A program made the position numbers and the translations under genes. Of a stretch of DNA of 64,000 nt, positions 9,484-53,024 are shown in pieces. The DNA lies in contig JBBIKS010000006.1 of the NCBI GenBank assembly GCA_037445375.1, positions 19,237 through 83,236 of the forward strand, written 5' to 3'. A model generated the notes under the pieces. The model had not been told where the DNA came from. It was given only the letters and a program-made list of their open reading frames with translations, and ran no database searches. How positions within the stretch are numbered: position 1 is the stretch's first letter; the number at the start of each line of letters is the position of its first letter. This DNA comes from Nitrospirota bacterium (GTDB lineage: Bacteria > Nitrospirota > Thermodesulfovibrionia > Thermodesulfovibrionales > Dissulfurispiraceae).

Positions 9484-10674
9484 GTGGGAACTGCAATAGG
9501 TGTTGGGATAAGTACTTTGGAGAACTCTTATGAGGCGGGGTGCGCTGCCATGATGGCTGCCATTAACAATATTGGCTCGATTTTTGAAAGAACTACGAAT
9601 GAACTGGTTATTGTGTTTCTGACGGAGGATTATGACCTTGAGATAGTATTAAGGGGTATAAATGAAAAATCAAAGACACAAAATATAATAGGCTTCACTA
9701 CCGCAGGTGTATTTACTGAGAAAAGTATAACTACAACAGGTATTTTGGTCGGTATAATCAAAAGCGATGAAATGGATTTTCATTTGGATATGGAAGAGGG
9801 GCTGAGCAAGGATCAACAAAAAGCGGGAATTAGTTTAGGACAAAGAATTAGCGGTATATTAACAGAAGAAGATGAAAATGCCCTCCTTTTGCTTTTCCCT
9901 GATGGAGTTACAAATACAGTGAGCGGATTGGTTGAATCACTTTTTTATAACCTTGGCTCTATAATACTTTATGCAGGAGGAGGGGCAGGTGATAATCTTA
10001 GATTTTTAAAGACCTATCAGTTTTTTTATGACAGGATAATAACTGATTCTGTTGTCAGTGTTCTCATTAAATCAAAAAAGCCTATTGGAGTTTCCCTTTC
10101 CCATGGATGGAAACCAATAAGCCCGCCTTTAGTTGTGACAAAATCAGAGGGGACTATTATAAAAGAATTAGACTGGCAAAACGCCCATGAAGTTTACTCA
10201 GGCTTAGTAGAAAAATATGAAAATAAGAAGCTTGATACTGAATTTGCAAAGGTTGCCATAAGTTATCCGTTTGGTATCCCGCAGACCACAGAAGGCTTGA
10301 ATTATGTAATAAGGGATCCTATTGATATAGATTCTAAGGGGTTTATTACTTGCGTTGGTGAGGTGCCTGAAAATGCTGTGGTTAGAATTATGTCTGGTGA
10401 TAAACAAAGTTTGTTAAATGCTGTAAGGTGGGCAGTTAATGATGCAATTAGTCAGTGCTATGGATTCAAACCGTCAGGTGTATTAGCTTTTTCATGTGTA
10501 TCCCGATGTCTAATTTTGGGAGATTTTTTTAAGGATGAAATTACTGTTATTAAAGAGGCAGTGGGTGATGGAGTGCCTGTCTTTGGCTGTATGACATTTG
10601 GAGAAATTGGATCTATAGCAGGGGGACCGCCGGAGTTTCATAATAAATCTATTGTTATATGTGTTTTCACTTGA
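9484..10674 (+). CDS. FIST-domain sensory protein
   Basis: FIST_N/FIST_C-like layout over 396 aa. GTG start preceded by an AAGGAG Shine-Dalgarno (SD) sequence. Confidence 0.7.
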   Translation: MGTAIGVGISTLENSYEAGCAAMMAAINNIGSIFERTTNELVIVFLTEDYDLEIVLRGINEKSKTQNIIGFTTAGVFTEKSITTTGILVGIIKSDEMDFHLDMEEGLSKDQQKAGISLGQRISGILTEEDENALLLLFPDGVTNTVSGLVESLFYNLGSIILYAGGGAGDNLRFLKTYQFFYDRIITDSVVSVLIKSKKPIGVSLSHGWKPISPPLVVTKSEGTIIKELDWQNAHEVYSGLVEKYENKKLDTEFAKVAISYPFGIPQTTEGLNYVIRDPIDIDSKGFITCVGEVPENAVVRIMSGDKQSLLNAVRWAVNDAISQCYGFKPSGVLAFSCVSRCLILGDFFKDEITVIKEAVGDGVPVFGCMTFGEIGSIAGGPPEFHNKSIVICVFT

Positions 10675-10844
10675 CCGGTATAATGTATATAGAAAATCAC
10701 AGATAAAATCATTAGCTCAACAAGTCTTATTTCTGTGATGACAGAATGATTTTCATGCACCTTTTGTAAGCTGAAAACTTATGAAGTGTTCGGGTTAATA
10801 CAGATAGTGCGAACTTTTACTGACGCTTAAGTTGTAGGGAAAAT

Positions 10845-11291
10845 ATGAACAACTACGAATACGAAGATATAGATAATAAAGTAAGGGACCTGTCTGTAAT
10901 GTATGAAGTCGTTTTCTCGATGGGCACATACTTGGACATTAAAATGGAGGCAGATAATTTTATAGGGAAGGTGCTTAAACGTTTTGGTTATGATGTAGGC
11001 ACCATTATGATTAAGGATCAAGAAAGAAATATTTTTAGCATAGTATCTGCAAAAGGCTATTTTAAGACAGATGGACTAATTGGAACTGAATATACCGCTC
11101 AACAATTTGGTATTGAAGATGTCATAGTTAAGGGTAGTTCTATCGTTAAAAATGAACTGAGCAAGTCCGATAGAGAGTTAATCATCCTTTCATATCTTCG
11201 CTCAAAAGTTAACTCATATGCTTTCGTCCCAATATATTTTGAGAGTGAGCTTTTAGGAATATTAAGACTTCTTTCTCACAAAGGTCAATGA
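10845..11291 (+). CDS. GAF-like domain protein, possibly the detached N-terminus of the following kinase
   Basis: GAF-like sequence ends abruptly at ...LGILRLLSHKGQ. An ATGA overlap joins it to the next ORF. Confidence 0.45.
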   Translation: MNNYEYEDIDNKVRDLSVMYEVVFSMGTYLDIKMEADNFIGKVLKRFGYDVGTIMIKDQERNIFSIVSAKGYFKTDGLIGTEYTAQQFGIEDVIVKGSSIVKNELSKSDRELIILSYLRSKVNSYAFVPIYFESELLGILRLLSHKGQ

Positions 11292-12907
11292 GGATGGTAG
11301 AATCTCTGGTTCGCAGGTTTGGAACTATTCTGAATCATATTGCAGCGATAACTATTTTAAATACAACACAAGGGTTATTGTCAGATGAAAAAGAAAAGCT
11401 ATTTGTAACACTTCAAAGTATTGCTGATTCAGTTATCACAACCGATACCATAGGTAGAATAAGTTTTATGAATAAAAAAGCAGAAGAAATAACAGGCTGG
11501 TCCGCAAAAGAGGCTTCAGGACAACCTTTATCAAATATTTTTTGCATTATTAATAGTAAAACAGGTGAGGCATATGAGATCCCATTAGAAAAGGTTTTAA
11601 AGACGGGCATGACAGTCAGTCTTGGAAATAATGTTACTCTTATAGCAAAGAATGGGAGAAAGAAAATAATAGCAGCAGATAGTTTTGCTCCTATCAAAAA
11701 TAAAAGCGGTAAGATAATCGGGGTGGTATTGGTATTTAAAGACATCATAGAAAAAGAATTGATGGATAAAGAATTTATTAAGATGAAGAAGCTTGAATCG
11801 CTTGGACTGCTTGCAGGCGGCATCGCACATGACTTTAACAATTTACTTACTGCTATTCTGGGCAATATTGGTCTTGCTATGGCTTATCTGCCCCCGGAAC
11901 ATAAAACATATAGGCGGCTTCGTGAAAGCGAAAAGGCTTCATTAAAGGCAAGGGATTTAGTCAATCAATTGCTCACATTTTCTAAAGGAGGTGAGCCTGT
12001 TAAAAAGATTCTCTCCATTGCCACAGTAATAAAGGAAACAGTGAATCTGGCATTAATTGGTTCTAATATCAAGTGTGAAATTTTTATTCCCGATGATATA
12101 TGGAATGTGCTTATTGATGAAGGACAGATAGGCCAGGTTATCCATAATTTACTTCTTAATGCTTGTCAGGCAATGCCCTCAGGTGGAACAATCAAAGTGA
12201 TGTGCGAAAATACTTTTATAGAAAAAAAGGCCGTTTTACCTATTCCCATAGGTAAATATGTAAAAATATCTGTTCAGGATGAAGGTATTGGCATTTCCCA
12301 AGAAAACTTATCTAAAATTTTCGACCCTTACTATACTACAAAGCTAAAAGGCACTGGACTTGGTCTTTCAATAGCATACTCAATAATTAAAAAACACGGC
12401 GGCTATATTACTGTTGATTCCATCATAGGTAAAGGCACAACATTTGTATTTTATCTGCTCGCTTCTAAAAAAGCGGCAGAATCAATCAAAGAGACAAAAG
12501 ATAGTAAGGTTAAAAAATTATCGGATAAGAAAAAGCTACTCGTGATGGATGATGACGATATGATCCTTGATTTTGTAAAAGAGGTGCTGTCCGGGGCAGG
12601 ATATTATGTTGAATGTTCAAAAAACGGCGGGCAGGCTGTAGAATTATATAAAGAAGCAATAAGTGCAGGAGATCCATTCGATTTGGTCGTTCTTGATTTT
12701 ACAATCCCCGGTGGTATGGGCGGCAAAGAGACCATTAACAGGCTACTAAAGATAACCCCAGGAGTTAAGGCAATTGTGTCGTCTGGTTATTCTGCAGATC
12801 CGATAATGACTGAATATAAGAAGTATGGCTTCAGTAGTGTCTTAATAAAACCTTATAAAGTTGATGATTTATTAAGAACTGTAGAAATCGTGATTATGTC
12901 AGGGTAA
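11288..12907 (+). CDS. Hybrid sensor histidine kinase (PAS-HisKA-HATPase-REC)
   Basis: H-box GIAHDFNNLLTAI, the G-box GTGLGLS, and a C-terminal receiver (LVMDDDD...). Confidence 0.85.
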   Translation: MRMVESLVRRFGTILNHIAAITILNTTQGLLSDEKEKLFVTLQSIADSVITTDTIGRISFMNKKAEEITGWSAKEASGQPLSNIFCIINSKTGEAYEIPLEKVLKTGMTVSLGNNVTLIAKNGRKKIIAADSFAPIKNKSGKIIGVVLVFKDIIEKELMDKEFIKMKKLESLGLLAGGIAHDFNNLLTAILGNIGLAMAYLPPEHKTYRRLRESEKASLKARDLVNQLLTFSKGGEPVKKILSIATVIKETVNLALIGSNIKCEIFIPDDIWNVLIDEGQIGQVIHNLLLNACQAMPSGGTIKVMCENTFIEKKAVLPIPIGKYVKISVQDEGIGISQENLSKIFDPYYTTKLKGTGLGLSIAYSIIKKHGGYITVDSIIGKGTTFVFYLLASKKAAESIKETKDSKVKKLSDKKKLLVMDDDDMILDFVKEVLSGAGYYVECSKNGGQAVELYKEAISAGDPFDLVVLDFTIPGGMGGKETINRLLKITPGVKAIVSSGYSADPIMTEYKKYGFSSVLIKPYKVDDLLRTVEIVIMSG

Positions 12908-14328: not shown

Positions 14329-15747
14329 TTATCTCAACGATTGTATTATGCCGCCAACGAGGCATTCTATTTCATGATTCTGGACTGTCCTCATATCTAA
14401 AATCAGCCGGTTATCATTTATTCTTGCAATTATGGGCAGGGTGTTTTTTCTGAGTCTCTTTTCAAGTAAATTAACAGAGATATTATATGGCTCTATTGAG
14501 ACTGCGAATGTTTCAAATTGAATCTCAGGAAGCGCTCCGCCGCCTGACTGGGAATAGTCTTTGATAATGTTAATTTCTGCATGATCATAAATTGAAAAAT
14601 CAGGCTGTATTTTTAGTCTTGATAATACCTTTTCAGCCCTTATTTTAATTGTTTCTTTATCTTCTAAAAGCATTCGCAATGTCGGTATTTCAATTTTTGC
14701 TTTTTCTTCATCAAGATATACTCTGAGAGTTGCCTCAAAAGCGGCAAGGGTCATTTTGTCAACTCTCAGTGCACGCATCAGTGGGTTTTGGGATATTTGT
14801 TCAATCAATTCAGATTTTGCTGCTATTATTCCCCCCTGTGGCCCCCCCAGCAGTTTATCACCGCTAAAGGTGACTATATCAACGCCCGCTTCTATAATCT
14901 CCTGAACCGAGGGCTCAATATGAATGCCGTATGGTTTAAGGTCAATAAGGCATCCGCTGCCAAGGTCGAACATTACAGGGAGATTAAATTTATTGCCTAC
15001 TGCAACAAGTTCTTGCATGGAAAGGGATTTAGTGAAACCGATCATTCTGAAATTAGACTGGTGGACTTTTAATAAGAGGGCTGTATTTTCATTAATAGCT
15101 CTCTCATAATCATGAATGTGCGTTTTGTTTGTAGTGCCTACCTCTTTCAGTATCGCACCGCTGCCAGCCATCACATCGGGTATCCTGAATGAGCCGCCTA
15201 TCTCGACTAATTCACCCCTTGAGACAATCACCTCCTTGCCTTTTGCGAGGGTATTCAGGCAAATAAGAACAGCAGCAGCATTATTATTGACAATTAAACT
15301 GTTCTCTGCTCCTGTTATTTCATTAAGTAATTGCTGTATATGCGAATATCTTTTGCCCCTTGCTCCTTTTTCCATATCATATTCAAGGTTTGAATATCCA
15401 CAGGCAATCTCTTTAACGTGCTGAATGACACCCTCAGAAATAATAGATCTACCGAGGTTGGTATGAATTACAACTCCTGTTGCATTAATTACAGGGATGA
15501 GGCTGAATGCAAAAAGTTTTTGTATTTTTTTATCTATTTTATCAAGTATTGCATCACGGCTGATATCTGCCTTAGCCCCGTTGAGGATATCGCTTCTTAT
15601 ATTCTCGATGACCTCTCGGACGGCTTGAAGCACATACTTTCTTGGGTATTTTTGTTGCCAAAGCAGTCCACTCTGGGATTTCAGAACTTCATCAACAGAA
15701 GGCAGACTGGATAGTAAGTATTTAGTACCATTCATCCGATAATACAC
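14329..15747 (-). CDS. selA: L-seryl-tRNA(Sec) selenium transferase
   Basis: PLP-lysine motif FSGDKLLGGPQGGII and a SelA-type N-terminus (LPSVDEVL). Confidence 0.9.
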   Translation of the reverse strand: MYYRMNGTKYLLSSLPSVDEVLKSQSGLLWQQKYPRKYVLQAVREVIENIRSDILNGAKADISRDAILDKIDKKIQKLFAFSLIPVINATGVVIHTNLGRSIISEGVIQHVKEIACGYSNLEYDMEKGARGKRYSHIQQLLNEITGAENSLIVNNNAAAVLICLNTLAKGKEVIVSRGELVEIGGSFRIPDVMAGSGAILKEVGTTNKTHIHDYERAINENTALLLKVHQSNFRMIGFTKSLSMQELVAVGNKFNLPVMFDLGSGCLIDLKPYGIHIEPSVQEIIEAGVDIVTFSGDKLLGGPQGGIIAAKSELIEQISQNPLMRALRVDKMTLAAFEATLRVYLDEEKAKIEIPTLRMLLEDKETIKIRAEKVLSRLKIQPDFSIYDHAEINIIKDYSQSGGGALPEIQFETFAVSIEPYNISVNLLEKRLRKNTLPIIARINDNRLILDMRTVQNHEIECLVGGIIQSLR

Positions 15748-20380: not shown

Positions 20381-22039
20381 ATGCAAGATAACAAAGAACA
20401 AATTAAAATTTTGATAGTTGATGATGACAAGTATATAAGAGATTTTCTCTCCATACTTCTTTCAGGCTCGGGATATTTTTGCTATATCGCATCAGACGGC
20501 AGAGAAGCCTTAAATAAAGTTCAAGCAATAAATCCAGATATTATTTTTCTTGACCTGTTCATGCTGGGAATGCATGGATTAGAGGTTTGTAAAAAAGTGA
20601 AAAAAAACCCTGAAACATCTCAAATCCCTATAATAATAATTACGGCATCTGTTGATTATGAATTAAAAATAAAATGCCTCGAAGCTGGAGCATCTGACTA
20701 TATTACAAAACCACTTAATCCTTTAGAGATTAGGGCAAAAACTCAAAATTTCCTGCATATCAAAAAATATCATGAAATAAATGTTAAAAACCTGCTTCTT
20801 CAGCAAACATTAACAATGATTGAAAGGGCAAAAAAAGAATGGGAGTCAATGGTAGATTCCATAAACGATATTATAATTTTGGTTGACCATGAAGACACTA
20901 TTATTAGGACAAATAAGAGATTATCCGAAACTACTCAACTTGATTTTAGAGATCTATTAGGCAGAAAGTGGCAAGATGTGCTTAAGGAAAGCGGTTTTAC
21001 TAACAAAGTTCTCGGTTCCGGAGATATTGAGTTTTTTCATCCGAAAGGGAGATATTTTAATTATAATATTTACTATATCAATAATTTCAGAAATACTAAC
21101 CAGTCTGCTGCTACTATTATCCTTCAGGACATTACGGGCATAAAAAAGCTGACAATCCAATTAGAAGAAAGCAGTCAGATGATAGAAATAAAGCATCAGG
21201 AGCTTGAAAAAACATATTTGGAGCTAAAGTCTGCACAGTCACAGATACTACAGCAGGAGAAGATGGCGTCAATAGGGCAGCTTGCAGCTGGCGTTGCGCA
21301 TGAGATAAATAATCCCACAGGTTTTATAATGAGCAATCTTAATACCTTGCTGAAATATTCGGACAGGATAAAGGATTTTGTATCAAGCCAGACAGAAGCT
21401 CTGGATTTAATCTCTAAGGGCGTCTCTTCGAACAAAGAGATTTTAGAGAGACTTAAAGAAAAAAGAAAGACAACAAAGTACGACCATATAATAGAAGACA
21501 TAGGCAGTTTGGTCGCTGAATCCATTGATGGTGCTGAGAGGATAAAGAGGATAGTTCAGGATTTAAAAAGCTTCTCCAGAGTTGATGAGGCTGAATATAA
21601 GTTAGCTGATTTAAATCAAGGGATTGAGAGCACAATAAATATCCTATGGAATGAGCTTAAATATAAGGCTGTAATTAAAAAGGAATATGGTGATATTCCA
21701 AAAACCAAGTGCAATCTTGGACAATTGAATCAGGTATTTATGAATATATTAATTAACGCTGTTCAGGCTATTGAAAAACACGGAGAGATTGCGATCAAGA
21801 CATGGAATGAGGCGGATACAATTTATATTTCTATTTCTGATACTGGAAGCGGGATACCTGAAGACAAAATAAGCAGGATTTTTGAGCCATTTTATACAAC
21901 TAAGCCAGTTGGGGAGGGGACAGGGCTTGGACTGAGCATAACTTATGACATTGTCCGCAAACATAACGGTGATATCAAGGTAAAAAGCGCATTAGGGGTT
22001 GGGACGACATTTATGATTAATATTCCGGTTATAAGCTAA
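20381..22039 (+). CDS. Response-regulator/histidine kinase hybrid (REC-PAS-HisKA-HATPase)
   Basis: N-terminal receiver (ILIVDDD), H-box GVAHEINNPTGFI, GTGLGLS. Confidence 0.85.
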   Translation: MQDNKEQIKILIVDDDKYIRDFLSILLSGSGYFCYIASDGREALNKVQAINPDIIFLDLFMLGMHGLEVCKKVKKNPETSQIPIIIITASVDYELKIKCLEAGASDYITKPLNPLEIRAKTQNFLHIKKYHEINVKNLLLQQTLTMIERAKKEWESMVDSINDIIILVDHEDTIIRTNKRLSETTQLDFRDLLGRKWQDVLKESGFTNKVLGSGDIEFFHPKGRYFNYNIYYINNFRNTNQSAATIILQDITGIKKLTIQLEESSQMIEIKHQELEKTYLELKSAQSQILQQEKMASIGQLAAGVAHEINNPTGFIMSNLNTLLKYSDRIKDFVSSQTEALDLISKGVSSNKEILERLKEKRKTTKYDHIIEDIGSLVAESIDGAERIKRIVQDLKSFSRVDEAEYKLADLNQGIESTINILWNELKYKAVIKKEYGDIPKTKCNLGQLNQVFMNILINAVQAIEKHGEIAIKTWNEADTIYISISDTGSGIPEDKISRIFEPFYTTKPVGEGTGLGLSITYDIVRKHNGDIKVKSALGVGTTFMINIPVIS

Positions 22040-26746: not shown

Positions 26747-28288
26747 ATGTTGAATACAGAGAAGATTTTGGTTTTAGATTTTGGTTCGCAATATACACAG
26801 CTTATAGCCAGAAGGGTCAGGGAAAATAAGGTTTATTCCGAGATATATCCATTCAATGCACCTATAGATAAAATCAAGGCATTTCTGCCTAAAGGCATCA
26901 TTCTTTCGGGCGGACCTTCAAGTGTTTATGAGGATGGGGCTCCAATCCCTGATTTAAATATATTCAAACTCGGCATTCCAGTGCTGGGGATTTGTTACGG
27001 CATGCAATTAATGGCACATCTTCTGGGCGGCGAGGTTTCAAAGGCGATTAAAAGAGAATACGGCAAGGCAGAACTTGTTGTTGATGATGCTAAAGATATA
27101 TTTGCTGAAATACCTCCTCAGACAAAGGTCTGGATGAGTCATGGAGATAAAATTAATAAATTACCACGAAAATTTTCGATTATTGGACATACCAGCAACT
27201 CTCCGGTAGCCGCTATGGCAGACAGGAGTAATAGATTCTATGCTTTTCAGTTCCACCCTGAGGTTGTTCATACTGATGAAGGCTCCAAAATACTCCACAG
27301 TTTTATTTTCAATATATGCGGGTGCAAGCCAACATGGACAATGAAGTCTTTCATTGAAACTATAAAACAAGAGATTGCGGAGAAGGTCAAAGATCAAAAA
27401 GTTGTATGCGGCATTAGCGGGGGAGTTGATTCTTCAGTTACTGCAGTATTGGCGCACGAGGCTGTCGGCGATGCCCTCATATGCATCTTCGTAGATAATG
27501 GGTTGCTCAGGCATAATGAGGCTATAAAGGTAGAAGAAACCTTAAGAAAAAACTTTAACATGAACATCACATGTGTTGATGCCTCCGAAAGATTTTTAAA
27601 AAGACTCAGAGGTATCAAAGATCCCGAAAGAAAAAGAAAGATTATCGGTAATGAATTCATAAGGGTATTTGAAGAAGAGGCAAAAAAGATTAAGGGTGCA
27701 AGATTCCTTGCTCAGGGGACATTATACCCGGATGTCATCGAGAGCACATCGTTCAAAGGGCCTTCTGCGACTATCAAAAGCCATCATAATGTTGGCGGAC
27801 TTCTCAAGAAGATGAAGCTCGAACTGATTGAACCATTGCGCGAGCTTTTCAAGGATGAGGTGCGATTGCTCGGTCATGAACTCGGAATGCCTGATGAAAT
27901 TATCAATAGACATCCCTTCCCCGGTCCCGGTCTTGCGATCAGATGCATCGGAGATGTAACAAGGCAGAGAATGGATATATTAAGAAAGGCTGATGTTATT
28001 GTGCTTGAGGAAATAAAAAGATTCAGGCTTTACAATGAAATATGGCAGGCATTCGCAGTGCTCCTTCCCGTTAAAAGTGTTGGTGTAATGGGCGATGAGA
28101 GGACTTATGAAAATGTGATAGCAGTGAGAGCTGTAACAAGCCTGGATGGTATGACCGCAGACTGGGCAAAAATACCTTATGAAGCAATGGAAAGCATATC
28201 TAACAGGATAATAAATGAAGTAAAAGGTATAAATAGGGTTGTCTATGATATAACCTCAAAACCCCCCGGAACTATTGAGTGGGAATGA
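26747..28288 (+). CDS. guaA: GMP synthase (glutamine-hydrolysing)
   Basis: GATase plus SGGVDSS PP-loop. Ends ...GTIEWE followed by TGA. Confidence 0.95.
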
Positions 28289-30170: not shown

Positions 30171-30729
30171 CAGTTGTCCTCCTCTATAACAAAACTTTCA
30201 GAAGTGTTTCCATAATCTAATATGGTGATATAAAAAGAGGCAGTCAAGCTGCAAGGCAACAAAATAGCAACTTCTCTACTATTGGACATAGAATTAAGAA
30301 CAGTTCAAATGAAAAATGACCGCTCTTGAGATTACCATAAAAGCCTTTGTATTATCAATCATTTCAACCTTGTCTAAGAGTGCCGAGAAAAAGCTCTGGA
30401 ATTATGAAATGTGAATGTCTTTCTTTGTTGGAAGTATTTTTTTAAAACGATATTTTAACGCTAAAACTGTTAAGATATCAGGCAAGGCCTTCTTTTTCTT
30501 AAATGTAAAATTGAGAAATCAAGCCCTTTGCCTGTTCATTGCCGTTCCAAGATAGACGATGCTGTTTAAGAAGGAGATGGATGTGAAATGTATAGTTTAG
30601 GTTTGATCACAAGACACTTCCCTCTCGAGTTAGACCTGTTTGCTGTTTTTTTTTACTTAACTCATGATGGATGTCGATTCTATTTCTGACAATTGACAAA
30701 AGACAACTAATTTCAAGATAATTGATTTA

Positions 30730-30824
30730 ATGCCAACTGTTAGAAATATTTCAGGGCTATATCGTTTTTCTTTTACGGCTTTGATTGTAATGAGCTTATG
30801 CATGTTCATATTCAGAGAGAAAAG
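30730..30824 (+). pseudogene. Possible DUF4160-like gene fragment (frameshifted)
   Basis: MPTVRNISGLYRFSF, then a frameshift, then YGFDCNELMHVHIQREK. This resembles the MPTV..YRF.FY..D..EP.HVH..RE N-terminus as I recall it. Confidence 0.3.
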
Positions 30825-30866
30825 ATGAATGGCAAAACACTGGCATGCAAGGCAACATGGATAGCG

Positions 30867-31128
30867 GAAGCAACGAGAGGATATTAATTCATCAATATGA
30901 AATTGACGAAAAGGGAAGTGTTCAGAAATGTGTGATTGTTCCTCCTACATCACAGAATTTGTTTCATATCGAAAAGACTATTTATCAGTTTGTTCAGGCT
31001 AATATTGATAGAGCGGGGATTATCTGAAAAGGGAATGTGAGAAGATAATAAGAAGCTATGACCCTTGCATATCGTGCGCCACGCATATAGTTTATTTTAT
31101 AGGTAAATATCATAAGTGTCCAAAATAA
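30867..31128 (+). pseudogene. Remnant of a [NiFe]-hydrogenase large-subunit C-terminus (at least 2 frameshifts)
   Basis: Three frames read EATRG / ILIHQYEIDEKGSVQKCVIVPPTSQNLFHIE... / ...KIIRSYDPCISCATH. The last contains the DPCxxCxxH Ni-binding motif. Confidence 0.6.
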
Positions 31129-31349
31129 TATTTAAGTTTAGATATGAAGCGATTTCTTCGCCAAAGAACTACCTTTGAATGTGTGCAAAAGTTTGACAGA
31201 CGACCTATTGGTTTCACAAATAAATACTGAGGCTTCCGCATCGTCTTCAGCCTCATTGAGTTACCCATGGCTTTGGCTTGAGAAATCGCTTCATATCGCC
31301 TGCATTTGGATATATCTAATAATTTTTTTGACAAATATTAAGGTAATAT

Positions 31350-33575: not shown

Positions 33576-35504
33576 ATGAAAATCGGCACTATAAGCAATT
33601 ATATCAATATTAAGACTATCATCATATTTACTATTCAGTTCTTCCTTATAGTTACTATATTAGGCTATCGCTCATGGAAAGATAGGGGCGATGAGTGCCT
33701 CAAATGCCATTCAGATATGCAAAAGATGACTAAGCTCGGCTATCCCCAGTTTTATATAACTCAGGAGATGATAGAAAGGGAAAGCAAACATCCCAATATT
33801 AGATGTCAGGAATGTCATCTTGGTAACGCACGAGCCAAAGACCCTGATGAGGCGCATAAGGGTATGCTTGCAGTTCTTCTGGTCAGTGAAGAAGGGGAGC
33901 TTCTTAAGCGTAAAGATATTTACCCCAAGCCATTGATACCTGCTGGCAATGATAAAATCAGGGAGATGCTCCCGCAAGTCGAGTATGAAGGCGAACTTTA
34001 TCCACATCCTGATGTTAGAAATGTTCTTTGGCATGACAGAGACCCAATAACCCTGAATTATGACCCTGCCATAACCAAAAAAACATGCGGCAAATCAAAC
34101 TGCCATCCTGCAGAAACAACCCAATTCCATAAAACCATCATGGCAACTAATTTCAGGCAGAGGACTATGACCACATGGCTTGCGCCCTATGGTCCTCAAA
34201 ATTGAGGGCCATCCTTTGCGGACATACCTCCGTCGGAGGTATTAAAAGATAAAGGATTCTCATTTAAAAACACTCAGGAGATAGCCAAAGAAATCAACCT
34301 CCCTTTTACAAATCAGCAGGCTGTTGCGAAACAAAAATTTTGCAATGCCTGCCATACAGGCTGTCTTGACTGCCATTATGAGCCTAGTAGAGATAAAGGT
34401 GTTCATAATTTCACCTCAAAACCAGCTTCCCAGACATGCGGAGGTTATGGGAGAAATACGAGCATGTGCCATGCCGGCTCTTTGCACAGCAGAAGGGGAG
34501 GCACATATGTCGGAGGGGATTATTCGCTCCCAACTGGCATGAAAGCTGACACCCATTATAAAAAGAACATTCATTGCATTGACTGCCATTTAACCGGTCC
34601 AAAGGGTATGGGTGATATGCAGAGAAAGGCAAGCTGTCAGGACTGCCATATAGAAATCGAGGCTGCACACTCAAAGAGTGTCCATAAAAATCTTGATTGT
34701 GCAGCTTGCCACATAAATGAACTCGGAGGCTATCAGATTGTTGTATATGGTCCCGGCATGGTCGCTGGCAAGCCAAACCCTTTTAAAAAATACTCGCTAT
34801 ATCATGGCATCCAAAGCCCGCCGATAATTATGAAGGACCAAAAGGGCAAGTGGATGGCGGTAAAGGTATTTCCGCACTCAGTGGGCAATTTTAAACAAGA
34901 TGTAAAGTCATCAGAAAGCGTAATGTTCCGATGGAAAGATAGCGATATAAAAGACCCTTATTACATCATTGGAACTCACAGTATTGGCTCAAATGATAAG
35001 CATCTTTTATGGCTTGAGATACAACATGTCTCTCATCCGTATGGCAAGGGAAGGACATGCGAAAGCTGCCACAGCGAGAAACAAATCTCTATATCAAGAT
35101 GGGAGTACGAGGATGATCAGGGTGTTAAAGAGCCTTTCAAAGGCGGATACAAGATTATTGCTGACAAGTATGGTCTAAAGATAACTGACATGCAAAATAC
35201 TAACCCGATAGTTTTGGCTGACGGCTATAAGTTAGAAGACTTTGCCTCATGGCTTTTCCTGAAAGACAAATGGCAAATGCATGGGGATTTTTCAATAACT
35301 ACGGATAAGGATAAATATAATAAATATCTGAATCTTTCAAAAAAGATCAGCAATGAACTAAAAAACCTTGATAAGGAAATTAAAGGCAAAGACAAAAAGA
35401 TTCAAAGGAAATACCTTGAAATGAGAGGCATTGTGCTTCATAATGAAGATGGGGCAGTTGAACTGATTAAGGATTTTAAGCATAAGGAGAGCAGCTCAAA
35501 ATAG
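33576..35504 (+). CDS. Membrane-anchored multihaem cytochrome c with an in-frame UGA at 34203-34205 (candidate selenoprotein, 642 aa)
   Basis: Single frame with one TGA. Eight CxxCH motifs plus CGKSNCH. There is no in-frame ATG/GTG/TTG between 34206 and 34463, although CNACH and CLDCH are encoded there. Confidence 0.7.
34206..34257 (+). promoter_or_regulatory. SECIS-like stem-loop immediately 3' of the UGA
   Basis: Outer stem AUCCUUU (34211-17) / AAAGGAU (34251-57). Inner stem AUACCUCC (34224-31) / GGAGGUAU (34236-43). Apical loop GUCG. Confidence 0.6.
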
Positions 35505-51236: not shown

Positions 51237-52538
51237 CTATTTTTTATCGTGGGCTGCCATGTCATTTTCAAACATGCCCTTTAATATTCCATTAGCACAG
51301 AATTTGCCGCACATTGTGCAGGTTGAGCCATCACCGTTACCTCTTTTAGCCTTTATTTCCTTAGCTCTCTCAGGATCTATAGAGGTATCAAACTGACCTT
51401 CCCACTTCATATCCCTTCTTGCCTTAGACATTATTTTATCAGCATTCATATCCTTTCGTTTAATCATATCTCCGACATGAGAGGCTATTCTGGCAGCAAT
51501 AACACCCTCCCTGACATCTTCAGGAAATGGCAATCCGAGATGTTCTGCAGGTGTTACATAACAAATAAAGTCAGCGCCATAAGCAGATGAAAGGGCTGCT
51601 CCAATTGCTGATGTTATATGGTCATAGCCTGGCGCAATATCGGTAGTTATGGGACCTAACATATAAAATGGTGCTTCACCGCTCATCTTTTTCTCCAAGA
51701 TTATATTAGCCTCTATCTCATTGATTGGTATGTGTCCCGGACCTTCCACCATTGTCTGACAGCCCGCCTCTCTACCAATCTCGGCAAGCTCACAATTGAT
51801 AATCAATTCCTGAATCTGCACCCTGTCGTTTGCATCATGAATTGCACCAGCCCTAAAACCATTGCCAAGGCTTAATACACAATCATATTTTCTGAGAATC
51901 TCAACCACCCTGTCGAAATGCTCGTATAGCGGATTTTCCTGATTATTATGCTCCATCCATGCAACCATATATGCACCGCCCTTTGAGACAAGCCCTCCAT
52001 AACGATAATGCTGTTTTCTAAGCATCTCTACTGTTCTTCTGTTAATCCCGCAGTGAATCGCCATAAAAGAGACGCCCTCACTGCATTGCTTCTCAGTAAT
52101 CTCAAAAAGAAGTTCCTTTGGCATCTTTACCGCCGCCCCATATTTTTCGATAGCGATAGCAAAAGCTTCATAGAGAGGCACTGTGCCAAGCGGCAGACTA
52201 ATAGAGTCCTTGACTGCTTTTCTTACAGCCGCAATATCGCCGCCTACACTCAGATCCATTAAGGTATCCGCACCATATCTTTGAGCTATCTTAGCCTTTT
52301 CAACCTCCATATTAATATTTGAAATATCAGTAGATGTGCCGATTGAGGCATTTACCTTAGTCCTTAATCCCTTGCCGATACCCACTATCTTTGCATTCCT
52401 ATTTTTGTTTGCAGGAATCACTATCTTGCCGCTGGCAACCCTTCTGCGGATTATCTCAGAATCAATCCCCTCATTTTGTGCAACAGCCTGAATCTCTAAA
52501 GTAATTTCGCCCTTTAATGCCCTTTGAAGCTGTGTCAT
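51237..52538 (-). CDS. bzaF: ThiC-family radical SAM enzyme. Context suggests 5-hydroxybenzimidazole synthase rather than thiamin ThiC
   Basis: ThiC-like motifs (EGPGHIP, LGPITTDIAPGYDHITSAIGAA, CYVTPAEHLGLP, C-terminal CTMCGKFC). GGGGAGG SD before the ATG at 52538. First gene after a cobalamin riboswitch. Confidence 0.6.
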   Translation of the reverse strand: MTQLQRALKGEITLEIQAVAQNEGIDSEIIRRRVASGKIVIPANKNRNAKIVGIGKGLRTKVNASIGTSTDISNINMEVEKAKIAQRYGADTLMDLSVGGDIAAVRKAVKDSISLPLGTVPLYEAFAIAIEKYGAAVKMPKELLFEITEKQCSEGVSFMAIHCGINRRTVEMLRKQHYRYGGLVSKGGAYMVAWMEHNNQENPLYEHFDRVVEILRKYDCVLSLGNGFRAGAIHDANDRVQIQELIINCELAEIGREAGCQTMVEGPGHIPINEIEANIILEKKMSGEAPFYMLGPITTDIAPGYDHITSAIGAALSSAYGADFICYVTPAEHLGLPFPEDVREGVIAARIASHVGDMIKRKDMNADKIMSKARRDMKWEGQFDTSIDPERAKEIKAKRGNGDGSTCTMCGKFCANGILKGMFENDMAAHDKK

Positions 52539-52550
52539 ATAAACCTCCCC

Positions 52551-52588
52551 AAAAAATAAAAAAAACCTCAAGGCATGACGCCCTGAGG
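52551..52588 (-). terminator. Terminator-like hairpin plus U-tract in the bzaF leader (probable riboswitch expression platform)
   Basis: On the minus strand: CCUCAGGG-cgucaug-CCUUGAGG followed by U8AU6, ending just before the SD. Confidence 0.5.
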
Positions 52589-52744
52589 ATTGCACCCTTT
52601 TTTACTTCATCCCCTGTATCTCATCAAAAGTTAATTCTTCTGAGGAGACTTCCCTTCTATCCGCGAGAAGGCTTTTAGTACGAGTATCAAGTTATTCAGG
52701 TCAGATTATCAAAAAAACTGACACTAATCACCGACACTGTCACT

Positions 52745-52995
52745 ATTCGTTCACAGGCAGGTCTTCTGGCTTCCGGTTCAGATTATTTCTTTGCCTACTC
52801 ACCCACCTTCCCATCCTTCGACAAGTTTAGGACAGTGGCTTTTCTAAAGACAGTATCAGTGTCAATTTATCCTGACTCACTAACTCACCGTCTTCACGGG
52901 TTTTCGTACCGGTTACAGCGGCGGGACCGCCCCTGACTTGGTAAATTAACTCTACCTCACAGGATTCCCTATTAAGCCCTACGGCACCTATAGGA
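52745..52995 (-). promoter_or_regulatory. Cobalamin (B12) riboswitch
   Basis: The minus strand reads GGUGCC..UUAAUAGGGAAUCCUGUGA..GGCGGUCCCGCCGCUGUAA..GCCACUG..GGGAAGG..AAGCCAGAAGACCUGCC (B12 box). Confidence 0.85.
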
Positions 52996-53024
52996 CATTA
53001 TAAATGAAATATAGATGAAAAAAT

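Follow-up and report, generated by a model that had tools for sequence, protein, structure and literature searches.

The locus described here raises the question of whether a TGA triplet in the middle of a cytochrome c gene is a stop codon or is read as selenocysteine (Sec). It lies in a 64 000-nucleotide stretch of contig JBBIKS010000006.1 from a Nitrospirota bacterium, hereafter the window, in which two open reading frames (ORFs), 33576..34205 (209 aa) and 34464..35504 (346 aa), both unnamed in public gene calls, have a common frame. A first-pass annotation had proposed that a single in-frame TGA joins them into one multihaem cytochrome, that the downstream ORF has no credible start of its own and that TGA is an ordinary stop elsewhere in the window, and all three points held on re-examination. 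Translation of 33576-35504 on the forward strand gives 643 codons ending in TAG, with only one internal stop, the TGA that occupies codon 210 (34203-34205), i.e. a joined product of 642 residues. The 258 nucleotides between the two ORFs contain no in-frame ATG, GTG or TTG, yet they code for two haem motifs (CNACH and CLDCH), and the earliest downstream ATG, at 34464, sits within another one, CGGYGRNTSMCH. In a six-frame scan of the 64 kb this was the sole non-antisense single-TGA read-through joining parts of at least 60 codons (here 209 and 432 codons). Among 55 other major ORFs of the window, 16 use TGA as their normal stop, including rlmH, a FIST/NosP-like gene and ORF 26747..28288, which from its position we take to be guaA; the genetic code is thus one without reassignment. 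We consider that the best explanation of the whole is a single membrane-anchored ten-haem Sec cytochrome working as a reductase by the mechanism proposed below, with a probability of roughly 85%, and, on the sequence comparisons, that the UGA is very probably a genuine Sec-decoding codon.

The first body of evidence comes from homologues. Orthologues with Cys or UGA at the aligned position had been suggested as a check by the first-pass annotation, and both were found: Cys in 133 sequences and TGA in 10 further genomes. A protein search with the joined sequence gave 376 homologues, and the best 120 of these, on which the alignment counts are based, are without exception complete sequences, of 586-656 aa with 55-70% identity and 97-100% coverage, and originate from Nitrospirota, Thermodesulfovibrionales and Dissulfurispiraceae. 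The UGA column is a Cys in 120 out of these best 120, inside YGP[HQ]N-C-GPSFAD. A profile search among 1.84 billion cluster representatives retrieved 172 clusters only, and even the full-length members that diverge most (536-1152 aa, 30-50% identity) still hold (G/A)P[HQ][NS]-C-G. The 13 Cys-type loci described next likewise agree with GP[HQ][NS]-C-G. We then have, at the DNA level, 25 loci from species-representative genomes: codon 210 is TGC or TGT in 13 of them and TGA in 10 (L001, L002, L005, L006, L007, L010, L012, L013, L017 and L022), the latter belonging to Thermodesulfovibrio, Dissulfurispiraceae and other Nitrospirota and encoding proteins 63-86% identical to the window protein. The frame stays open to the common C-terminus in every TGA locus, and no orthologue ending at codon 210 and followed by an independently started gene was found among the sequences and loci compared. 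The database hits obtained with the joined protein included no full-length Sec-type sequence, the best being 70% identical; TGA-type genes 83-86% identical, i.e. above this best hit, do exist in genomes. Along the 86 codons going from the UGA to the ATG at 34464 of the window, the 11 TGA forms vary at 38, 30 and 80 columns for the first, second and third codon positions, and in no comparison of TGA forms do nonsynonymous differences outnumber synonymous ones; this pattern indicates that translation runs on past the UGA.

The second body of evidence is a hairpin of the selenocysteine insertion sequence (SECIS) type, situated within the coding sequence 18-37 nt past the UGA. It consists of AUACCUCC-GUC-GGAGGUAU, with an 8-bp stem and a loop beginning 26 nt past the UGA, in which G comes first and is followed by U or G (GUC, GGC or GUU across the TGA forms). 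Its predicted stability is -9.9 kcal/mol for the hairpin alone and -21.4 kcal/mol in a 60-nt context (z = -3.1). The published model of bacterial SECIS elements (bSECIS) requires a loop of 3-9 nt with a G within its first two nucleotides, an upper stem of 4-16 bp, a distance of 16-37 nt between UGA and loop, and a minimum free energy ≤-7.5 kcal/mol (PMC13188914); the hairpin falls within all these limits of loop, stem, spacing and energy. It is present in 11/11 TGA forms, with 95% of the cells paired, against ≤60% for all register-shifted controls, and compensatory changes occur at two of its pairs, one of them, U-A to C-G in L017, at the cost of replacing a Glu by a Gly. By comparison, the hairpin is kept in two of the 13 Cys forms only (L008 and L014), a split for which the hypergeometric P is ∼3e-5 if the relatedness of the sequences is ignored.

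As to the Sec machinery, selA had been reported in the same window and is confirmed there, on the reverse strand 18.5 kb upstream of the cytochrome gene. This bears on the alternative that survives best, an improbable one nevertheless, which is that the UGA is decoded partly or wholly as Cys, either by a SelC*-type tRNA-Cys(UCA) or because selenium is limiting, which would make the mature protein a Cys form. Cys is indeed functional at position 210 in most of the family, and Thermodesulfovibrio genomes are reported to contain SelC* genes for tRNA-Cys whose anticodon is GCA or UCA; in a test system, a UCA form inserts Cys at opal codons (PMC5389517). However, the text consulted does not give the anticodon of the Thermodesulfovibrio SelC*, and these genomes are also reported to have all of selA/B/C/D. 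Moreover, UGA and SECIS have been kept in 11 species, though a one-base change would give Cys, which argues that Sec itself is selected.

Another possibility, less probable still, is that the TGA is a real stop and the locus yields a three-haem anchor of 209 residues plus a separate cytochrome of 346. Public gene predictions consist of exactly these two ORFs, and a shortage of selenium should lead to some truncated product with any selenoprotein. But the downstream protein would then start inside a conserved haem motif and omit 86 conserved codons which evolve as coding sequence and contain two invariant haem motifs; it would lack an export signal sequence despite its covalent-haem motifs; a promoter and terminator scan between the two halves gave nothing above shuffle expectation; and the Cys homologues are all single polypeptides.

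If the UGA is read through as Sec, what protein results? The 8 CxxCH motifs and the CX4CH motif (residues 171-177) counted in the first-pass annotation are there, but it had missed a tenth conserved motif, CX9CH (residues 288-299). All ten are invariant in the family alignment and kept in diverged members. The CX9CH column is occupied by an ordinary CxxCH in the ExtM-like proteins discussed below, which supports CX9CH as a true haem site. Its spacing is unusual for covalent haem attachment and may necessitate a special haem lyase; the CX15CH motif of MccA requires one. The N-terminal membrane anchor, also proposed initially, is borne out by an AlphaFold2 (AF2) model built from an alignment of 73 homologues (predicted local distance difference test, pLDDT, 83.9; predicted template modelling score, pTM, 0.82), in which a helix at residues 12-35 is followed by a haem-rich, mostly coiled part up to residue ∼380, a beta-rich part (383-541) and terminal helices (578-642). 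We read the first helix, after which haem motif 1 starts only 6 residues later (residue 41), as an uncleaved signal anchor predicted to give a type-II membrane topology. When modelled alone from a 17-sequence alignment, the beta-rich domain reached a pLDDT of 45 only. Two diverged members, P0139 and P0140, have in place of a simple anchor long N-terminal extensions of low complexity, rich in Met and Pro (e.g. MNMSPLNMG repeats).

The most conserved segment outside the haem motifs, MATNFRQRTMTTWLAPYGPQN-U-GPSFAD, is the one that contains codon 210 (in the Sec form the peptide spanning it is TMTTWLAPYGPQN-U-GPSFADIPPSEVLK, with ...WLAPYGPQN as upstream context). Its invariant residues are M189, R194, Q195, R196, W201, N209, Sec/Cys210, P212, S213, F214 and D216, arranged as M189-x4-R194-Q-R196-x-M-x-T-W-...-N209-(U/C)210-G-P-S-F-x-D216. 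Unless C288 of the CX9CH motif is free, residue 210 is the only conserved cysteine position outside the haem motifs. Known families say little about the protein: Pfam yields only generic c7/c3 signatures, and a scan of the window protein against NCBIfam gave no family-level hit.

Table 1. Position in the window of the candidate Sec cytochrome gene, of its component parts and of selA
Feature	Coordinates	Strand	Details
Candidate complete gene of a multihaem cytochrome c selenoprotein, 642 residues	33576..35504	+	ATG start, TAG stop, one Sec-UGA
N-terminal hydrophobic helix, residues ∼12-35	33609..33680	+	AF2 helix, pLDDT 90-96
Haem motifs 1-3	33696..34106	+	CLKCH 33696-33710, CQECH 33804-33818, CX4CH CGKSNCH 34086-34106; family-invariant
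Most conserved non-haem segment	34140..34223	+	Proposed active-site loop
In-frame UGA, codon 210, very probably read as Sec	34203..34205	+	Alignment with Cys; TGA in 10 other genomes
SECIS-type hairpin within coding sequence	34224..34242	+	Stem 34224-34231 with 34235-34242, loop GUC 34232-34234
Haem motifs 4-9	34341..34712	+	CNACH, CLDCH, CX9CH, CIDCH, CQDCH, CAACH; family alignment
CX9CH motif, residues 288-299	34437..34472	+	Aligns with ordinary CxxCH of ExtM-like proteins
Beta-rich domain, residues ∼383-541	34722..35198	+	AF2, pLDDT mostly 85-95; includes haem motif 10, CESCH 35058-35072
C-terminal helical tail, residues ∼578-642	35307..35501	+	AF2; in main clade, missing from several diverged members
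selA, L-seryl-tRNA(Sec) selenium transferase	14329..15747	-	TIGR00474, 613 bits (cut-off 268)

The first-pass annotation knew of no characterised multihaem cytochrome containing Sec, a statement which is now outdated. MccSep (ExtKL; GSU2937-2936 of Geobacter sulfurreducens), characterised in 2025-26, is a Sec-containing five-haem polysulfide reductase (PDB 9wt8): it was purified and crystallised, its Sec was identified by mass spectrometry, its polysulfide reductase activity was demonstrated, and in it Cys239 ligates haem 2 while Sec325 attacks polysulfide or selenite (PMC13510729). Precedents do not end there, since the 119 families of prokaryotic selenoproteins catalogued in 2026 include, besides ExtKL, two more of cytochrome type, that of GSU2204 and an octahaem cytochrome of OTR type (PMC13188914); the window protein belongs to none of these three, and the catalogue does not contain its family.

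One may then ask if the window protein could belong, as a diverged sequence, to the MccSep/ExtKL polysulfide reductases, a family with known members in Thermodesulfovibrionia. The general theme is common to both: a multihaem c-type cytochrome of the periplasm, one Sec encoded by UGA, Cys-type homologues, a SECIS-like hairpin ∼30 nt or less downstream of the UGA, a haem-rich N-terminal part followed by a beta-rich C-terminal part, sulfur-metabolising hosts in the same phyla (Desulfobacterota, Thermodesulfovibrionia) and a gene that was historically split into two ORFs. In addition, one metagenomic protein, P0142, joins an MccSep-like module to a window-family module. Nevertheless, we find membership very unlikely. 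MccSep is a soluble protein of 450 aa with five haems, as compared to 642 aa, ten motifs and a membrane anchor for the window protein; its Sec is residue 325 in an Ig-like domain (SIPDG-U-PTP), whereas ours is at residue 210, between haems 3 and 4 (YGPQN-U-GPSF); and it has a separate haem-ligating Cys239, a role for which the window protein could offer only C288, which might in principle be free but aligns with the first Cys of a CxxCH in ExtM-like proteins. The MccSep pattern of five CxxCH motifs and then an Ig-like domain with a D-G-U-P loop is not matched by the window protein, which gives no hit at E≤10 with NF040886 (MccSep/ExtKL), and the family profile detected no MccSep chain at E≤10 among PDB sequences including 9wt8 and 9wt9. 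P0142 itself is a cluster representative of 1152 aa, in which an N-terminal five-CxxCH module (NF040886, E 2.5e-7; MccSep PDB chain, E 0.002) is fused to a complete window-family module; a Tyr stands at the MccSep Sec position (VTVTNHTGHKLPTG-Y-PEG) and the window-family module keeps APQSCG. Such a fusion may mean that these two kinds of cytochrome are functionally linked. The weakest of the alternatives, an error in sequencing or assembly or else a pseudogene created by a recent nonsense mutation, has nothing for it beyond the presence of a stop codon and is practically excluded, as the first-pass annotation had asked to be verified, because ten independent assemblies show TGA at the same codon with no other in-frame stop, at 63-86% protein identity, with a co-occurring hairpin and with purifying selection downstream.

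The two other catalogued types, the octahaem cytochrome of the tetrathionate-reductase family (TIGR04315) and the GSU2204 family (NF041027), resemble the window protein in associating Sec with CxxCH motifs and were predicted by comparative genomics (PMC13188914). Membership in either was rejected: no hit at E≤10 was obtained for the window protein, P0001 or P0120. Our literature searches retrieved no description of the window cytochrome family. To judge from these sequence comparisons, it looks like a selenoprotein family new to the catalogue, in which Sec entered a multihaem cytochrome once more and independently.

The relatives that could be found are remote. ExtM (GSU2935, NF040943) is a cytochrome with 12 haems whose gene lies directly downstream of extKL, within the extHIJKLMNOPQS cluster of Geobacter (PMC5877670). 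The weakest hits of the family profile are ExtM-like proteins, the profile hits are reciprocal, and a comparison with hhalign gave a probability of 99.9% and an E-value of 3e-32 over 214 columns, covering residues 37-361 and haem motifs 1-8. By these profile matches, the haem core formed by motifs 1-8 and ExtM are remotely homologous, haem motifs 1-3 corresponding to ExtM-like haem sites. Common to both are the CX4CH motif, a CHLGN...AH.GM signature and a similar overall size. On the other hand, ExtM-like proteins have a CxxCH where the window family has CX9CH, and they do not have the PYGP-N-C-GPSFAD loop, which is therefore a family-specific addition. ExtM is not a selenoprotein, and it belongs to a bc-type electron-transport operon (Rieske/cytochrome b, with extKL nearby), unlike the window gene, which is alone among housekeeping genes. 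The window protein was rejected as a bona fide ExtM, with 15-29 bits against the NF040943 cut-off of 800.

Like NrfH, NapC and NirT, the window protein has an N-terminal transmembrane helix and its first CxxCH straight after. An NrfH-like match (TIGR03153) at residues 14-86 remains sub-threshold (E 0.016-0.046; 14-15 bits versus a cut-off of 134), and the match to the PDB entry of NrfH (2j7a, E 0.0035) concerns a different segment, residues 331-369; the PDB sequence search with the family profile gave no relative beyond this short NrfH-like stretch. NrfH differs in being a four-haem protein of ∼160 aa with a separate catalytic subunit. Another parallel is with TsdA, SoxAX and DsrJ, which are His/Cys-ligated haem enzymes of sulfur metabolism: here too we have a c-type cytochrome of sulfur-cycling bacteria with a single conserved non-motif cysteine and nearby conserved arginines. 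No relation in sequence or fold to these enzymes was found by PDB sequence search and Foldseek, and we know of none among them with Sec as a ligand.

How could such a protein function? We propose a quinol-linked periplasmic reductase of a sulfur or selenium chalcogen substrate, by analogy with the His/Cys-haem sulfur enzymes and MccSep, and because the hosts are sulfate reducers or sulfur disproportionators. On the comparative evidence, codon 210 is very probably recoded to Sec by SelB and tRNA-Sec under the direction of the downstream hairpin. The first-pass annotation had suggested that a Sec between haem sites could be redox-active or a ligand. In our proposal the PYGP[HQ]N-(U/C)-GPSFAD loop, coming after the invariant FRQRTM segment, would bring Sec/Cys210 to one of the haems, at it or above it, where the residue would serve as sixth ligand or as an adjacent nucleophile, and an anionic substrate would be held by the invariant arginines; polysulfide, thiosulfate, tetrathionate or selenite are candidates in the periplasm. 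Electrons from menaquinol would enter via the membrane-proximal N-terminal haems and pass along the haem chain. This point of entry is suggested by the anchor with haem 1 next to it and by the sub-threshold NrfH match, and a stand-alone gene would fit with it.

The conserved residues allow a count of possible haem ligands. Universally conserved candidates for the distal position are H94, H277, H327, H370, H487, M189, C210 and the His/Met positions 72 and 434; with H153 (12/15) as a further candidate the total is ten for ten haems, residue 210 being counted. Such a count fits with ligation by residue 210, and equally with one five-coordinate catalytic haem having Sec/Cys as its neighbour. That Sec210 might be the distal axial ligand of one haem, i.e. 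a natural His/Sec-ligated haem, is suggested by the fact that the count reaches ten only with residue 210, the hallmark of the family; we regard it as a rather doubtful possibility. To our knowledge, His/selenocysteine coordination of haem is known from engineered proteins only.

The genomic surroundings were compared as well. The neighbours in the window are mqnP, a QueG/RDH-like Fe-S gene and a convergent cbiO/Q/M cluster; none is conserved beside the orthologues in the loci compared. The order found in 12-13 loci is rodZ-like gene, cytochrome, RNase R (rnr), mutS, coaE and ribF (names judged by eye). No conserved partner gene was found in the loci compared, and the cytochrome gene appears to stand alone. 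In four loci of the most basal Cys-type clade (L019, L023, L024 and L025) it is followed immediately by a seven-gene block on the same strand, whose products, judged by eye, look like pseudopilins and assembly proteins of type II secretion or type IV pilus systems (GspG-M-like N-terminal motifs).

In a neighbour-joining tree of 25 sequences, the basal clades are all Cys-type and the Sec forms are in one derived group, where a Cys subclade (L008, L009, L011 and L014), two members of which retain the hairpin, is sister to the Sec-type L013. Tentatively, then, Cys would be the ancestral state, with Sec gained in a single derived clade and at least one later return to Cys, after which the hairpin would have survived as a vestige. 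The retained 8-bp hairpin, GUGCUUCC-GGC-GGAAGUGC, is found at the SECIS position of these TGC orthologues (L008:6628-6675 and L014:6628-6675) and may be a fossil SECIS left after Sec-to-Cys reversion; L009 and L011, close relatives of L008 and L014, have lost it.

Several points weigh against a selenoprotein reductase as described above. A comparable hairpin follows 2.6% of the TGA triplets of the window by chance, so that the hairpin argument rests on conservation and not on a single instance, and conservation is weakened as an argument by the phylogenetic relatedness of the 11 Sec forms. The search for a SECIS element called for by the first-pass annotation had a divided outcome: a hairpin fitting the bSECIS model follows the UGA in every TGA form, but no SECIS family of Rfam, whose SECIS models cover few bacterial SECIS types, was matched in the window at gathering thresholds or in 34100-34400 at E≤10, where a spurious miRNA hit was the only result. 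Among selA, selB, selC and selD only selA was seen in a check confined to the 64-kb window, within which no tRNA-Sec was found. The neighbour-joining tree is midpoint-rooted and without support values. The neighbourhood is made up of housekeeping genes and offers no clue to the substrate. Foldseek found no significant relative of the full AF2 model in the PDB (best E 0.23), haem-rich and coil-rich folds being hard for this method. Finally, the quinol-oxidising role leans on an NrfH match that is sub-threshold, and the AF2 model contains no haems, so that the placement of residue 210 relative to them is a proposal.

If a Sec cytochrome is indeed encoded here, it would constitute a new selenoprotein family and a second, non-homologous architecture with Sec in a multihaem cytochrome, which suggests that the chemistry associating Sec and haem for chalcogens arose more than once in sulfur-cycling anaerobes. 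Thermodesulfovibrio and Dissulfurispiraceae would then possess an unrecognised, possibly quinol-linked, respiratory reductase. With its natural Sec forms, its Cys forms and a Cys revertant possibly carrying a fossil SECIS, the family is well suited to the study of Sec/Cys exchange, and it supplies a CX9CH haem motif homologous to the canonical CxxCH. On the practical side, the gene calls of at least 11 species-level genomes split the gene into two nameless ORFs and are due for correction.

Four other regions of the window deserve mention. The ORF-poor gap 30171..31349 contains, at 30845..31089 (+), what is left of a gene for the large subunit of a [NiFe]-hydrogenase, namely part of its C-terminus. 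There, one ORF ends with ...VIVPPTSQNLFHIEKTIYQFVQANIDRAGII and a stop, and in another frame 31012-31089 encodes SGDYLKRECEKIIRSYDPCISCATHI and a stop, with the nickel-site motif R-x-YDPC-x-x-C-x-x-H. It looks like a decayed gene fragment, with a frameshift near a GGGG run and the N-terminal part missing. On the reverse strand, a cobalamin riboswitch (52739..53006, 72.5 bits) is directly upstream of a ThiC-family gene (51237..52595) which also scores 533 bits with the model of BzaB (B12 lower ligand); this suggests a B12-regulated benzimidazole-synthesis paralogue and not the ThiC of thiamine synthesis. The gene adjoins a run of minus-strand ORFs, 35519..∼50652, at the near end of which the four ORFs scanned are cbiO, cbiQ, cbiM and cbiX/C (cobalt transport and cobalamin biosynthesis). 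The region 9484..12907 (+) brings together a gene for a putative nitric oxide sensor of NosP/FIST type, a 148-aa ORF (10845..11291) and a PAS histidine kinase, and a further hybrid histidine kinase, of type II secretion system (T2SS) type, is encoded at 20381..22039.

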